21,136 nucleotides of DNA from a virus (IMGVR_UViG_2667528074_000001), one strand, 5' to 3'. Shown: positions 4,237 through 21,136, counted from the first letter of the stretch. The notes: generated by a model from the letters alone, not told the origin. Numbers and translations are program-made.

Positions 4237-4770
4237 TCAGCCCATCGGTTGATCCGGCGTGTCAGTGATCCCGCCACCATCACCATTTTCGGTGTGTTTG
4301 TGGGCATTGTAGGTCTGCCGCATTTGCTGCATGCTGAGTCCGCCACTGTCGCAATTGTCAGTAATATCAGCGGTGGATTCGACAGGCATTTCAAAGCGCG
4401 CTTTAGGCGCGTTTTTAAAAATAATGGGCTTCCCGGCCCCGTTCACCACAATACCGGAACGGGTCAGGACAACGGACTGCCCCTGATCGTCATAAAGCGC
4501 CACTTCCCCACGTTTCAGTCCTTTCAACCTGTAACGTCTGTCAGACACGACCACAACCACACCATGAGAACGGTCGCCTGCCGGGAATAAAGCAACGCCC
4601 TCAGCACCGTTCTGTGCAGCAGATGTAAAACCATAAGGCTCAAGGTGCTCAACGTGTTGTTTCTGATCTCCGGCTATCATTTTCAACCCTACAGACTGAC
4701 ACTTTCTGGCGGAATCCACCGCCGTGATGACAGCCCGGGAAATCAGATTGCGAAGAGAAAACCCGTTCAT
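4237..4770 (-). CDS. Baseplate assembly protein V-like central spike (Mu gp45-like)
   Basis: 177-aa ORF with gpV-like features (GDRSHGVVVVVSDRRYR, then a Gly-rich tip KHTENGDGGGITDTP). Conserved position. Confidence 0.78.
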   Translation of the reverse strand: MNGFSLRNLISRAVITAVDSARKCQSVGLKMIAGDQKQHVEHLEPYGFTSAAQNGAEGVALFPAGDRSHGVVVVVSDRRYRLKGLKRGEVALYDDQGQSVVLTRSGIVVNGAGKPIIFKNAPKARFEMPVESTADITDNCDSGGLSMQQMRQTYNAHKHTENGDGGGITDTPDQPMG

Positions 4771-5825
4771 CAGAAATCCTCCTCAACATTTTTTTTCTTC
4801 CTGGCGGTGACAGGCTCAGGGAGATAAGCATCTGCCGGGCCAACCCGTAATTCGGTCGTCGTGCCCCGGTCGTCATGGTTATAGGTAACTTCTGCGATCA
4901 CCAGTTCATCATTATCAAAATTATTCAGCGGGTCGAAAACGATGACAGATAACCCCGGACGCCATAACGCGCCACTGCCCTGCCGCCAGCCCTGAACCGT
5001 ATATGTTGTCTCACGGGTAAGCGCAGCCCGTTGGCGCGCTTCAAATTCACAACGGGCCTTACAGGTTGCTGTCGTTGCTGTACCTGACTGCTGAATCAAC
5101 AAAGGGCGATAACGGGTCACGCCACTGTCCTGAATGGTCTGACGTATTGCGGCAATGGTGGCCTCACCAAAATCATCGTCGTTGCCCGGGCGCTGCCCAC
5201 TGACCTGATATTCAGAAAACCGCTCTCTGATGCTTCTTTCCGTGTCACAGGAAAGAATATTCTCTCCCAGCACCAGTGCTGTCGCCGCCTTGCCTGTTCC
5301 TGGTTTCCCCAGAACCAGTCGTCCGCATTCATCGTCATAAGCCAGCGTCTGAACCTGCCCCAGCAACCGGTTAAGACAATCGGCAACAGTTTCGCCGTGT
5401 TCCGGCTGGGCATCAATCACCGCTGTCTGCGGCACGCCAGCATCAACAACGGTGATGCCAAATGGCGCAGCCAGTTCACTGACTATTCTGAGCAGGTTTT
5501 TTCCGCTCTGCTGAAGTGGCAAAGCAGAGCAGTCAACCAGATCGGCTGTTTTGCTTCGCCCGACAATACCCATGCTGACGCTGCTGGCGTCATAACGAAG
5601 CGGCAGTGCCTCCACATATCCGGTGAGCACGGGATCATCCCCGATAAGCACTTCAACCAGCTCACCATTTTTTATCCGGGGTTGATAATCCCGGCTTCCG
5701 GGCCAACGGGTGGTAATGGCAACATTAAAATCCCGGGCAATACGGTTAATGCCCGCACTGATACGGACGGATGTCCAGCCGCCCCATTCGCGACCGGAAA
5801 CCCGAAGTAAAACGGTATTATTCAT
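4770..5825 (-). CDS. Baseplate hub protein (Mu gp44 / gpP-like)
   Basis: 351-aa ORF between the DNA circularisation gene and the spike gene. TGATG/ATGA-type overlaps with both neighbours. Confidence 0.7.
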   Translation of the reverse strand: MNNTVLLRVSGREWGGWTSVRISAGINRIARDFNVAITTRWPGSRDYQPRIKNGELVEVLIGDDPVLTGYVEALPLRYDASSVSMGIVGRSKTADLVDCSALPLQQSGKNLLRIVSELAAPFGITVVDAGVPQTAVIDAQPEHGETVADCLNRLLGQVQTLAYDDECGRLVLGKPGTGKAATALVLGENILSCDTERSIRERFSEYQVSGQRPGNDDDFGEATIAAIRQTIQDSGVTRYRPLLIQQSGTATTATCKARCEFEARQRAALTRETTYTVQGWRQGSGALWRPGLSVIVFDPLNNFDNDELVIAEVTYNHDDRGTTTELRVGPADAYLPEPVTARKKKNVEEDF

Positions 5826-19132: not shown

Positions 19133-19483
19133 TCACTTGATTCGTTCGCGCGCTGTTTTCTCTTTGTGGCAGGGCCAGCACAGACTCCGCAGGTTGCTGT
19201 CTGCGTCTGTTCCGCCATGCGCTTTCGGGATGATGTGGTCGACAGTTTTCGCCTCGCTCACCACACCGACACGCAGACACAACTGACACAGACCTTTATC
19301 GCGCTTCAGAATACGGGCACGAATCACCGTCCATTTTGAGCCATAACCACGCTGGTGGCGGCTCAGTCCGCGCTGGTGCTGTGCCCAGCCTTCACCACGA
19401 TGTTTATCGCAGTAGCCAGAACTGTCTGTCGTTGTGCCTGCGCAGCCTCGCTTACGGCATGCGCGGGGGATCCGTGATGGCAT
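19133..19483 (-). CDS. HNH endonuclease (packaging-associated)
   Basis: 116-aa ORF. Cys-rich N-terminus (CRKRGCAGTTTDSSGYCDKH) and HNH motif (VDHIIPKAHGGTDADSNLRSLCWPCHKEK). Position directly upstream of the small terminase is typical of HK97-like cos phages. Confidence 0.9.
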   Translation of the reverse strand: MPSRIPRACRKRGCAGTTTDSSGYCDKHRGEGWAQHQRGLSRHQRGYGSKWTVIRARILKRDKGLCQLCLRVGVVSEAKTVDHIIPKAHGGTDADSNLRSLCWPCHKEKTARERIK

Positions 19484-19542
19484 AGAATTTCACTCTCCTG
19501 ATGGTAAAATAACCATTCCTTAAAAACCTATACGGAGAACAA

Positions 19543-19755
19543 ATGAAAAATACTATTTCAAAAGGATTTCACCGGACAGGCGTTCTGTTGGCTATTTTGG
19601 TGTTGATGTTGAGCTTTGGTTTCTTTTTATTAACAGGTGCTGGTACAGGAATCTCGTTATTTGCTGTATTAGTTTCCCTGGTATGTGCCTTACTGACATA
19701 CGGCATACTCAGACTGGTCGGATGGGCCGTTAACGGATTCATAAAAGATAACTAA
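19543..19755 (+). CDS. Small membrane protein (70 aa, two predicted TM helices), moron-like, opposite orientation to the late operon
   Basis: ATG 19543 preceded by GGAGA (6-nt spacer). Sequence MKNTISKGFHRTGVLLAILVLMLSFGFFLLTGAGTGISLFAVLVSLVCALLTYGILRLVGWAVNGFIKDN. Followed by the stem-loop at 19765..19789. Locally AT-richer than the flanking structural genes. Confidence 0.55.
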   Translation: MKNTISKGFHRTGVLLAILVLMLSFGFFLLTGAGTGISLFAVLVSLVCALLTYGILRLVGWAVNGFIKDN

Positions 19756-19764
19756 AACATTATC

Positions 19765-19789
19765 GCAGCCCCTCAGTGTGAAGGGCTGC
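19765..19789. terminator. Stem-loop between convergent genes (putative bidirectional intrinsic terminator)
   Basis: Plus strand GCAGCCCCTCA-GTG-TGAAGGGCTGC: an 11-bp stem (one mismatch on the plus transcript, a G-U wobble on the minus transcript), followed by moderately U-rich sequence on both strands. Lies between the stops at 19755 (+) and 19801 (-). Confidence 0.55.
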
Positions 19790-19800
19790 TGTAATGCCTG

Positions 19801-20193
19801 TTACTCACGAATCAGGCGAGCACTCTTACCATTCATTTCAATACGCGAATACTGCGGTTTACCATCAATGATGTCTGTCATTACGAACACCTCACCCGGC
19901 TGCAGTTCAACTGCACCTTCCGGTAATTTCATACCGGCAAATACCGGACAGCCCGGATGGCGATCATCTTCTGTTGCTTCCAGCATTGACTCACCAAACC
20001 ACGCCGTTGTAGCGCGACCATCAGCAGCCTTGTAGTGGATCAAGTACTGGTTTTCGCCATCCGCATACTGCGCGCGGGCTTTAACCTCACCCCATTCATC
20101 ACTGATGCGCATCTCCACCAGTTGTGACAGTTCAAACTTAAACGGAGCAGCCACAGCACCAATTACCATTGGTTTGTCTTCTTTCTTTTCCAT
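19801..20193 (-). CDS. Hypothetical protein (130 aa), function unknown
   Basis: ORF track 19801..20244; start placed at ATG 20193..20191, preceded by AGGAGA (5-nt spacer). Acidic, soluble-looking, no recognisable motif. Followed by the 19765..19789 stem-loop. Confidence 0.65.
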   Translation of the reverse strand: MEKKEDKPMVIGAVAAPFKFELSQLVEMRISDEWGEVKARAQYADGENQYLIHYKAADGRATTAWFGESMLEATEDDRHPGCPVFAGMKLPEGAVELQPGEVFVMTDIIDGKPQYSRIEMNGKSARLIRE

Positions 20194-20367
20194 TATCTTC
20201 TCCTGATATCGAAACCCGTCACCGCCCCGGGCGCTGATCAACATTTGAGTATTCGCGGCGACAGAAAGAATTTATTTTATTGAGTAGCAAAAAACACAGA
20301 ATTTCATGCTTTCCGGACACTGGCGTATCCTTCATTTTTCAGCAAAATATTCTGCTCTTACAGGCGA

Positions 20368-20550
20368 TCAGTTCTGCATGCACTGCCGGACACCGTCGAC
20401 AATTTCACAGACCTGAGAAGCTGTATCGAAAAACTGACGCGCCTTATCCAGGCTGACGCATCCCACCAATAAAAAAGGCACCAGTATCGCTACCAGTGCC
20501 CATTTCGCCGCCGTTCGCGGCATTCTGTGTGTCCAGTGTTTTCGCTTCAT
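20368..20550 (-). CDS. Putative small lipoprotein (60 aa)
   Basis: ATG 20550..20548 (MKRKHWTHRMPRTAAKWALVAILVPFLLVGC...). Basic N-region, hydrophobic core and a lipobox-like LVGC, followed by a ~30-aa mature part with two more Cys. The ORF track's longer form starts at TTG 20565. Confidence 0.5.
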   Translation of the reverse strand: MKRKHWTHRMPRTAAKWALVAILVPFLLVGCVSLDKARQFFDTASQVCEIVDGVRQCMQN

Positions 20551-20554
20551 CTCG

Positions 20555-20689
20555 CTATCCACCAATCAATCCGGATAAGCTCAATACTCGCCAGGCGGTG
20601 GAAATGAAAATGGCAACCAACATTGCTGAAAATGAAAGGCCAACAACCACACAGAGAATTCGCGCCAGTTTTATAATGCTATCTGACAT
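20555..20689 (-). CDS. Small single-TM protein (44 aa)
   Basis: Internal ATG 20689..20687 of track ORF 20555..20782. Sequence MSDSIIKLARILCVVVGLSFSAMLVAIFISTAWRVLSLSGLIGG. SD-like AGGGGT upstream. Ends 4 nt before the lipoprotein ATG. Confidence 0.4.
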   Translation of the reverse strand: MSDSIIKLARILCVVVGLSFSAMLVAIFISTAWRVLSLSGLIGG

Positions 20690-20706
20690 ATTTACCCCTG
20701 CCCCAC

Positions 20707-20853
20707 TTACGATTTCACAGCAATGATCAATTTTGCCATCCCATACAGCATCGGAGACACAGCGATACCGACCGCCACCCACTTAATGGCAAAAGCCACC
20801 GCTCTGCTGATGTCATCAGTTACAGGCGCTTTCAATTCAAGGCCGTTTTTCAT
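20707..20853 (-). CDS. Small protein with hydrophobic C-terminal half (48 aa)
   Basis: Internal ATG 20853..20851 of track ORF 20707..20889 (MKNGLELKAPVTDDISRAVAFAIKWVAVGIAVSPMLYGMAKLIIAVKS), GAGG 7 nt upstream. An alternative ATG at 20889 is preceded by AGGAGA with a short spacer. Ends 17 nt before the next small ORF. Confidence 0.35.
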   Translation of the reverse strand: MKNGLELKAPVTDDISRAVAFAIKWVAVGIAVSPMLYGMAKLIIAVKS

Positions 20854-20926
20854 AGTCAACCTCAACAGAATTAGTTTATACTTCCTCATGTTCTCCTTTG
20901 CCTTACCCAGGGCCAGAAACAGAAAA

Positions 20927-20956
20927 CCCCGGGCTGTTACCGCAGCCGGGGTTTTT
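20927..20956. terminator. Intrinsic terminator-like hairpin with T5 tract (bidirectional)
   Basis: Plus strand CCCCGGGCTG-TTACCG-CAGCCGGGG followed by TTTTT (9-bp GC-rich stem with one bulge). On the minus strand the same hairpin is followed by TTTTCTGTTTCTGG, about 100 nt downstream of the partial gene stop at 21050. Confidence 0.6.
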
Positions 20957-21049
20957 GCTATCTGATGCTATGCCCCTTACTTTCGCTCATCGTAGCCCCA
21001 GAAAAGAGCCTGCATGAGTTGAGGGTGTTCAGCACTTCAGTGTCAGTTT

Positions 21050-21136
21050 TTAAACCACCACGCGCTCTTTCATCCAGCCATAGACAAACGACTCATTGGC
21101 CTCGCGTTTCTCTGCCAGCTCCAGATAACGCTCGCC
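21050..21136 (-). CDS. 3' end of an unidentified gene entering from beyond the window end (last 28 codons)
   Basis: Minus-strand frame open from 21136 to TAA at 21052..21050: ...GERYLELAEKREANESFVYGWMKERVVV*. Too short to assign; possibly the last gene of the lysis or regulatory module. Confidence 0.3.
   Translation of the reverse strand, partial: GERYLELAEKREANESFVYGWMKERVVV

Follow-up and report, generated by a model that had tools for sequence, protein, structure and literature searches.

In this article, we discuss five small genes next to a phage lysis cassette and, above all, one of them that occupies the slot of a spanin gene. Spanins serve the outer-membrane step of lysis, usually through a fusion that spans the periplasm, and in roughly 13-15% of the phages that infect Gram-negative hosts no spanin can be recognised. 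To our knowledge, only one alternative to the spanins has been characterised, the disruptin of phage phiKT. This protein, gp28, disrupts the outer membrane independently of spanins (bioRxiv 10.1101/515445). The published entry that comes closest to our gene is found in the spanin census of Kongari et al. 2018 (PMC6139136), where phage phiP27 is listed with a 'separated' two-component spanin consisting of an outer-membrane subunit (o-spanin) at 20706..20861 and an inner-membrane subunit (i-spanin) at 20348..20542, both of them singleton families and together the pair with the shortest combined periplasmic length of the census (62 residues, in a range of 62-300). The DNA studied here is the virus sequence IMGVR_UViG_2667528074_000001, 21,136 nucleotides (nt) long and called the window from here on, with positions given in window coordinates unless another locus is named; its segment 19500..20960 contains five genes that we label A to E, with A, B, C and D on the minus strand together with the structural and packaging operon, and E on the plus strand.

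Gene C (20368..20550, minus strand) encodes a lipoprotein precursor of 60 amino acids (aa) with the lipobox LLVG/C. With a probability of about 0.3, we propose that it represents a new, partner-less class of outer-membrane disruption, in which a 30-residue, disulfide-bearing helical lipoprotein, perhaps together with its signal peptide, replaces the spanins in P27-type lysis cassettes, with A and B as inner-membrane modulators of the last lysis step that are shared with Shiga toxin (Stx) phages, and with A under the control of an antisense RNA resembling sar of phage P22. The parts of this proposal differ in strength: the odds that C is needed for the outer-membrane step of lysis seem to us about even, and that C performs this step without any inner-membrane partner is a distinctly more tentative suggestion.

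Gene C in the spanin slot

At its far end the window runs into an open reading frame (ORF) at 21050..21136 on the minus strand that continues off the window, whose translation ends in ...GERYLELAEKREANESFVYGWMKERVVV before the stop codon and which shares homology with the product annotated as 'glycoside hydrolase family 108 protein' 3' of two holin genes in Escherichia coli prophages. Since this ORF is the C-terminus of a glycoside hydrolase family 108 (GH108) endolysin, the cassette formed by A, B and C lies directly 3' of the lysis enzyme. Related E. coli prophages, in which no Rz/Rz1 is annotated, have the order holin (130 aa), holin (92 aa), GH108 endolysin, A, B, C, D, HNH endonuclease, P27-family TerS and TerL, and phiP27 carries the same holins and an M15 endolysin, then C, D (its L33) and the HNH gene. 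Among about 90 loci retrieved through C, the gene always lies 3' of the two holins and the endolysin, the latter being interchangeably of the GH108 or the M15 type, and where A and B are missing C starts ~14 nt past the M15 stop codon or overlaps the GH108 stop codon (ATGA).

An unbiased test was made with 80 IMG/VR loci that were sampled through the P27-type holin and not through C, 73 of which extend past the endolysin and are informative. The slot after the endolysin is filled by C in 57 of these 73 loci and by a lambda-type Rz with embedded Rz1 in three, it has neither in 13, and C and Rz were found together in none. Of the 72 informative loci of the sister holin clade (mEp390 type, ~47% identity), every one has an i-spanin (91 aa) and an overlapping o-spanin (75 aa) past the endolysin; 16 of them have the GH108 endolysin family of the window, and C, A and B are present in none. 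The only C-like copy found in an Rz-bearing phage, located 3' of Rz in GER2 (L006 3459..3680), is a pseudogene with two in-frame stop codons, and its decay beside Rz is consistent with redundancy of C and Rz/Rz1. Positional replacement and mutual exclusivity thus form a clean pattern, and it is mainly this pattern that leads us to suggest a role of C in the outer-membrane step of lysis.

Twelve of the 13 loci without C or Rz share one arrangement, and these cassettes probably belong to decaying prophages. The two of them that we inspected (L207 and L248) have, at 4391..4819 past the endolysin, a 47-aa A-like remnant and an antisense gene for a Bor-like lipoprotein, together with IS3-type transposase ORFs in L207. 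Toxin operons also occupy neighbouring slots in relatives: the LT-IIa genes lie directly 3' of the GH108 endolysin in Rac-SA53 (L097 3663..5438), with no C there, and the Stx2e genes lie just 5' of the holins in phiP27 (L001 7637..8872).

The precursor encoded by C has a long basic n-region (MKRKHWTHRMPRTAAK; 16 residues), an h-region, the lipobox and a mature part of 30 aa that is mildly acidic and predicted to be helical. In an alignment of 32 diverse members, the lipobox LLVG/C is invariant and is followed by V/A/T at position +2 and S/T/N at +3, and two further cysteines are as invariant as that of the lipobox (C-x8-C, or C-x9-C in distant members). Conservation is concentrated in residues 1-31 (the n-region MKRKHWTHRxPR plus the h-region), where 26 of 31 positions are conserved at a level of at least 90%, against 5 of 29 in the mature peptide; because synonymous changes are found throughout the signal-peptide region, the constraint acts on the protein, and the excess of conservation over the mature 30-mer suggests that the signal peptide or the precursor may have a function of its own. 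Residues 1-9 are conserved, whereas several members have T, V or I at position 10, so that C probably starts at M1 (60 aa) and not at M10 (51 aa) as in the spanin census.

The mature part has a net charge of -1.3 and is amphipathic, with hydrophobic residues at heptad-like spacing and Cys18 (mature numbering) in the core, from which we infer nothing firmer than compatibility with a disulfide-linked coiled coil. Structure prediction, which had been recommended as a check, gave for C a single helix over residues 12-59 at a predicted local distance difference test (pLDDT) score of 66, an AlphaFold2 (AF2) model of low to moderate confidence that adds little. The family (phrog_7528) is narrow, comprising 158 clusters at 90% identity, all of them from Enterobacterales and without a Pfam entry; C itself found no Pfam match at E <= 1, only 24 representatives of it exist among 1.84 billion proteins, and the gene is present in 306 of 5426 complete E. 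coli genomes (~6%). Two known designs for a single lysis protein were considered and set aside: its charge rules out a cationic disruptin, and a unimolecular spanin of the T1 gp11 type would require a C-terminal transmembrane domain (TMD), where the chain of C ends in ...VRQCMQN, which is not hydrophobic.

It is instructive to compare these features with the phiP27 record, since the census o-spanin at 20706..20861 is the C orthologue, so that C is not wholly undescribed, contrary to the view of this segment as the best candidate for an undescribed system. In the RefSeq record (NC_003356; L001) the orthologue at 5513..5701 is unannotated because L32, a coding sequence at 5589..5744, was called in a different frame on the same DNA. 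One could therefore take C for a canonical o-spanin that acts by the usual periplasm-spanning fusion with an i-spanin that has escaped recognition, be it B, A or its paralogue A', a 'holin' or a distant gene, and the census listing of phiP27, the lipobox and periplasmic cysteines typical of o-spanins, the translational coupling of B and A' to C, and the occurrence of B 5' of Rz all speak in its favour. The partner is where this account fails us. The phiP27 'i-spanin' is a 64-aa ORF with a TTG start, antisense to a longer ORF of 90 aa, within an insert found in 3 of the 73 loci, so that C cannot in general have it as a partner; the window has, from the endolysin to the HNH gene, no ORF with an N-terminal TMD and a periplasmic domain; and in 26 of the 57 C-bearing loci A and B are both absent, with C directly past the endolysin. 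A and B also co-occur with complete Rz/Rz1 and are consequently not i-spanins there, and the sister clade combines the same holin pair with a full spanin. Nor is the length sufficient, as mature C offers 30 periplasmic residues and A none, and the ~14 of the tail of B bring the sum to ~44, far short of the census range of 62-300, in which 62 is the disputed phiP27 pair itself.

We consider a canonical o-spanin unlikely on these grounds. C is a lipoprotein and lies in the right position, and it lacks both the partner and the length, for which reason we refrain from classing it among the canonical spanin subunits; it looks like a partner-less variant of an outer-membrane lysis component that has been listed, mis-partnered, as an 'o-spanin'. 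As for annotation, the published i-spanin call of phiP27 should be dropped.

In the mechanism that we consider most likely, C would be exported, lipidated and sorted by the Lol system to the inner leaflet of the outer membrane, a destination predicted because there is no Asp at +2, and it would act after the endolysin to destabilise this membrane. The absence of an inner-membrane partner with a periplasmic domain, and a mature part of 30 residues that is too short to span the periplasm, make bridging and fusion of the canonical spanin kind improbable for C. Our best guess is that a disulfide-linked amphipathic helix would operate on the outer membrane, possibly aided by a persistent signal peptide as in the colicin lysis lipoproteins.

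Genes A and B and a candidate antisense RNA

Gene A (20707..20889, minus strand) encodes a basic protein of 60 aa with a C-terminal TMD, predicted by hydropathy to be a tail-anchored inner-membrane protein with a cytoplasmic N-terminus of ~28 aa, a TMD at ~30-57 and no periplasmic domain; its relatives fall in phrog_1115/4493/3246. It is found past GH108 or M15 endolysins and also past the lambda-type endolysin R in PhiR12_3. The paralogue A' (57 aa, 48% identical to A over the aligned 40 residues) occurs without B, abuts C or Rz through TGAnATG and lies 5' of Rz in phage GER2. A has two in-frame start candidates, M1 and M13, each with a Shine-Dalgarno (SD) sequence; many gene callers pick M13 (48 aa), and A' has a Met at the equivalent position. 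A dual start as in holin/antiholin pairs is conceivable by analogy, and an in-frame indel of a codon that separates A from A' speaks for translation of the longer form.

Gene B (20555..20689, minus strand; phrog_4906) encodes 44 aa with a single TMD, placed by hydropathy with its N-terminus inside and with the short periplasmic tail already mentioned, and its stop codon is 4 nt from the start of C. Homologues at ~72% identity are present in 276 phage records, mostly of Stx1/Stx2-converting phages and often unannotated, and where the context was inspected B lies directly 5' of Rz (VT2phi_272, L260 2498..2632; PhiR12_3), as does a variant, B', which stands 5' of Rz/Rz1 without A in L195. The possibility that B is a fragment of the Rz TMD was discarded, the match extending over only 9 residues.

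Both A-B and A' without B are optional inserts between the endolysin and C, and in PhiR12-type phages A-B sits between the lambda-type R and Rz. Two unrelated types of cassette thus have these genes at the junction between the endolysin and the gene for the outer-membrane step, which is C here and Rz in lambdoid and Stx phages. The original prediction, a model's note on the window, had viewed A, B and C as a three-gene moron cassette in the one part of the window that virion structure and packaging do not explain. This view is not supported, given that C is the conserved last gene of a holin-holin-endolysin-C unit in the spanin slot and that A and B recur between endolysin and Rz; the three genes belong with the lysis cassette, an outcome that the note itself had listed as refuting.

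How these genes are transcribed is relevant here. A promoter scan found no minus-strand promoter-like site for A, B, C or D, the gap between the hairpin upstream of A and the SD of A is only 30 nt, and there is no terminator 3' of B; with no room for a promoter at one end and no terminator at the other, A, B and C are best regarded as late-operon genes and not as morons expressed in the lysogen. Predicted to be transcribed only with the late operon, A and B would most likely tune lysis at the inner membrane, either through holin timing or at a membrane-anchored step, by analogy with Lcc6 of phage LambdaSo.

The same observations help to weigh the idea that the whole segment, or A-B-C alone, is an island for lysogenic conversion or defence (superinfection exclusion, receptor masking in the manner of T5 Llp, phi80 Cor or lambda Bor, or abortive infection) whose position beside the lysis genes is incidental. 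The region is indeed AT-richer, bracketed by hairpins and variable among prophages, bor and toxin operons (LT-II, Stx2e) insert in or beside the slot in relatives, and E, to which we return below, fits such an island fully. A lipoprotein made late could, moreover, shield progeny from receptor in debris, as T5 Llp does. Apart from the transcriptional layout just described, this idea has to contend with the coupling of C to the endolysin stop codon, with the mutual exclusivity of C and spanins and the decay of C in the presence of Rz, and with the lack of a PADLOC match. In addition, C tracks the holin/endolysin module and not the tail or packaging modules, which differ among C-bearing phages, and this argues against receptor masking, a role that we had considered for C on its own and found unlikely. 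For A, B and C, a conversion or defence island is thus improbable in our view, about as much as the canonical o-spanin.

Upstream of A stands a bidirectional hairpin (20923..20956, core 20927..20956), identified by a terminator scan and folding, that reads A4-CCCCGGGCTG...CAGCCGGGG-T5 and forms a fixed 5' boundary of the A/A' module. Against shuffles, in longer context, it scores z -2.2 to -3.1. Hairpins of the A type occur in 77 of 260 fetched loci, at positions that match A or A' wherever both were mapped, and the stem is preserved by compensatory changes in PhiR12_3 and GER2, with U-runs on both strands.

This hairpin would also terminate a candidate cis-antisense RNA to the 5' end of A on the plus strand (20853..20959), with the promoter-like site TAGTCA-18-TATACT (20853..20882), a start opposite the ATG of A and an end at the hairpin and its T-run. 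Such an RNA of ~65 nt would be complementary to the SD and start codon of A in the layout of P22 sar/ant, and we regard its existence as possible and no firmer than the proposal for C. The promoter-like site matches the consensus at 9 of 12 positions, with TATAAT in some loci and TGGACA-18-TATACT in A', and A and A' have both preserved the -10 element (sense-strand AAGTATAAA) together with a -35-like hexamer at a spacing of 18 nt. The Rfam model of sar RNA (RF00262) aligns over its full length to 20874..20959 with 24.8 bits (E = 0.0056 in 261 nt, 0.046 in 2.1 kb), where the gathering score is 43, and Rfam gave only sub-threshold matches, all of them from the hairpin.

From these elements one can assemble a different account of A, in which a small membrane-active protein and its antisense RNA form a unit like a type I toxin or like sar/ant. 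It draws on the promoter-like site only 7 nt from the complement of the start codon, on a hairpin and T-run that make a good terminator on the plus strand, on the sub-threshold sar match with its identical 12-nt loop, and on the retention of promoter hexamers and hairpin in A and the 48%-identical A'. The sar score is, however, well under the threshold and other loci do not preserve the identical loop, chance alone would give 2.2 promoter-like sites per region, the conservation of AAGTATAAA may reflect a conserved KYK peptide, and no toxin family was matched. We hold this account to be tentative, at a level with our own proposal; it would explain regulation and not function, and it is compatible with a role of C at the outer membrane and of A and B at the inner membrane.

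Several points weigh against a partner-less outer-membrane role for C and should be considered together. The argument for the role of C is one of gene position alone, and 13 of the 73 P27-type cassettes have neither C nor spanins; in Rac-SA53, an LT-II prophage, the C slot is taken by toxin genes. Such C-less cassettes imply that prophages can persist without C, and in the laboratory lysis can proceed without spanins. We know of no means by which a mature lipoprotein of 30 residues could disrupt the outer membrane alone. An i-spanin partner may be encoded outside the flanks that we examined, the mature part of C is not cationic, unlike the known spanin-independent disruptin, and the AF2 models are of low confidence. 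For the antisense RNA there is the 9/12 promoter match and the sub-threshold Rfam score, and the strong hairpin 5' of A has no explanation if A, B and C are simply co-transcribed with the endolysin. The literature search returned no functional study on P27-type lysis cassettes or orphan o-spanins.

Cargo genes and the mosaic around them

All five genes are real and not chance ORFs, as follows from purifying selection on A to D and from the in-frame-only indels of E. The ratio of nonsynonymous to synonymous polymorphism (pN/pS) across related loci is 0.37 for A, 0.13 for B, 0.21 for C and 0.37 for D, with variation mostly at third codon positions; among homologues of E (54-68% identity) the indels are all in-frame, and an SD is present 5' of each of the five genes. 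The notion that these small ORFs are dispensable relics without current function can draw on the optional nature of every one of them in some relatives, on the 13 of 73 cassettes that lack C and on the absence of any family or structure match. It is very hard to reconcile with purifying selection, with conservation across Escherichia, Salmonella, Citrobacter, Cronobacter and Yersinia, with intact SDs and translational coupling, and with a C that decays only where Rz is present, and we give it very little credence.

When reference proteins were mapped onto 95 loci, A, B, C, D and E were found to occur independently of one another: D is optional 3' of C and can be separated from it by other small genes, and E is optional between D (or C) and the HNH gene. 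Homology among related loci ends 0-75 nt 3' of the C stop codon and differing genes come next, from which we conclude that C is the end of the conserved lysis module, with a cargo site beyond it. The stretch between lysis genes and terminase is therefore a variable insertion site, just as the original prediction had it, whereas a single island or system does not describe it, since the synteny comparison across related prophages that had been proposed as a check found modules that do not co-vary as a unit. The segment is thus best explained, and more likely than not, as four independent modules (C; A and B; D; E) put together as a mosaic in the late operon of a P27-like prophage. E and the HNH gene are 100% identical to one contig of IMG genome 2671180460, and C to another contig there (L008, L088, L089; UViG_2671180460_000003/_000004, 3300023038_000043); as neither contig has the gene order of the window, the window is a recombinant arrangement of modules that are found separately elsewhere.

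Other elements of the original description fared well. The five small genes and the two hairpins, at 19765..19789 and 20927..20956, are all present, the hairpins as judged by terminator scan and folding z, and the region is AT-richer than the structural genes, with a GC content of 0.44-0.48 in 19501..21000 against ~0.49-0.56 in the rest of the window. That the products match no recognised family also holds, in that Pfam, NCBIfam and PADLOC give nothing usable (the sole PADLOC match among the five proteins has E = 0.034, a chance level), and a PHROGs search of A to E returned only families of 'unknown function'. The moron label is apt in part, fully for E and loosely for D as optional cargo, and it does not suit the lysis-associated A, B and C.

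Gene D (19801..20193, minus strand) encodes 130 aa from an ATG with AGGAG upstream, and its product is soluble with an isoelectric point of 4.9. It belongs to phrog_1935, a narrow family without a Pfam entry, and is beta-rich, with a conserved core at ~17-90 and a variable C-terminal third. Burkholderia, Bordetella and P2-like phages share the core (~75 residues), which lies among unrelated genes there (P0282; L261, Bcep176 gp32; L262, ESSI2_ev040 'L33'), and it behaves as a mobile small domain, once duplicated in tandem and once, in Yersinia phages, joined to a longer protein. Sequence and profile searches of D gave no PDB match, and the AF2 model, built from 32 sequences, is poor (pLDDT 54), with nothing at E < 0.3 in a Foldseek search of the PDB, so that no fold was assigned; an SH3/Tudor-like fold was an impression from the sequence and is unsupported. 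The C-D spacer (20194..20367, minus strand) shares its first ~75 nt 3' of C with several cargo variants, and the remainder moves with D (13 loci aligned); it has no minus-strand promoter-like site in the promoter scan and no Rfam match. Judged by its placement, D is optional late-operon cargo.

Convergent D and E are separated by a hairpin at 19765..19789 (extended stem 19758..19797), found by the terminator scan on the minus strand. Its folding energies are -21.7/-27.2 kcal/mol, with z -5.0/-6.8 against shuffles, and all E modules retain it, with a loop that varies. The E module (19483..19755, plus strand) comprises a -35-like TAGAAT (19483..19488), an extended -10 TGgTAAAAT (19502..19510), an SD GGAG (19534..19537) and an ORF at 19543..19755 (70 aa). 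Seven loci, one of which has a different upstream neighbour, share the promoter elements (with an extended -10 of the form TGnTAAAAT), the SD, the ORF and the hairpin. By hydropathy, the product is a hairpin of two TMDs with both ends in the cytoplasm, and its ends are conserved (MKNTISKGFHR... and ...RLVGWxxNGFIKDN). E has a GC content of 0.44 and is present in few relatives, the HNH gene abutting D or C in most; 17 of 5426 E. coli genomes have a full-length copy, the phage database has none, and in species-representative genomes a first scan found none and a second scan one Citrobacter locus, with the same arrangement in Citrobacter braakii. Its match to DUF6050, at E = 0.009, is below threshold. 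As far as sequence anatomy can tell, E is a textbook moron, on the opposite strand, with its own promoter and hairpin, of low GC content and optional between neighbours that stay the same. We presume that it is expressed from the prophage, and a role of the superinfection-exclusion type would be our default guess.

Beyond E lies the HNH endonuclease gene (19133..19483, minus strand; Pfam HNH, 6.7e-16), whose context is annotated in phiP27 and in E. coli prophages. It starts the packaging module (HNH, P27-family TerS, TerL) and forms the right-hand boundary of the variable region.

Comparison with known systems

What the analysis shows is the anatomy, conservation, coding status, synteny and mutual exclusivity of these genes, whose functions are ones that we infer. 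The lead provided by C and its lysis cassette is worthwhile and of moderate interest, and not a categorically new system. Its value lies partly in the company that the genes keep. The cassette is found in toxin-converting prophages (Stx2e in phiP27, LT-II in Rac-SA53), for which the manner in which the outer membrane is opened bears on toxin release, and B lies directly 5' of Rz in hundreds of sequenced Stx phages, where it has never been assigned a role.

Beginning with the accessory elements, the candidate antisense RNA shares with P22 sar RNA (RF00262) the bidirectional hairpin, the ~30 nt that follow, the SD and start codon of the target, and an antisense promoter just inside the ORF; it differs in a score far under the family threshold, in a target that is not ant and in being a predicted transcript only. 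E resembles the lambda bor and HK97 gp15 morons in having its own promoter and hairpin, in being AT-rich and in lying on the opposite strand between lysis and packaging genes, and it has in common with HK97 gp15, an exclusion protein, that its product is a small inner-membrane protein with two predicted transmembrane segments, although it has no sequence similarity to any characterised moron product. Lcc6 of LambdaSo is a protein of 65 aa with one TMD that is essential for lysis at the holin level, and together with the Mu releasin gp25 and the antiholins it provides the nearest parallel for A and B, which are likewise single-TMD inner-membrane proteins, of 44-60 aa, tied to lysis cassettes. 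A and B have no sequence similarity to these proteins and are optional, and A is tail-anchored where Lcc6 has an N-terminal TMD.

For C, the comparison with two-component spanins (lambda Rz1) is the closest. C closes a holin-endolysin cassette at its distal end and encodes a predicted outer-membrane lipoprotein with periplasmic cysteines, and it sits in the same slot as Rz/Rz1 and the mEp390-type spanin, with which it is mutually exclusive. It departs from them in the lack of a conserved i-spanin, in a mature part of 30 residues that is predicted to be helical and is not proline-rich, and in a signal peptide that is more conserved than the mature peptide. The last of these brings to mind the colicin lysis proteins or bacteriocin release proteins (Lysis_col, PF02402), which are also tiny lipoproteins (~28-35 mature residues) that permeabilise the envelope and whose stable signal peptide adds to the effect, a parallel to the conserved signal peptide of C. 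C has no sequence relationship to them, carries two extra cysteines and a mature part predicted to be helical, and resides in a phage lysis cassette and not in a colicin operon. Finally, phiKT gp28 is, as C would be, a small single protein proposed as a spanin substitute in a spanin-less phage, and the two differ in kind, gp28 being cationic and similar to antimicrobial peptides without a lipid anchor, whereas mature C is predicted to be lipidated and carries its slight net negative charge. Should the proposal prove true, a partner-less mini-lipoprotein in the spanin slot would stand beside the disruptin as a second alternative route by which phages open the outer membrane.

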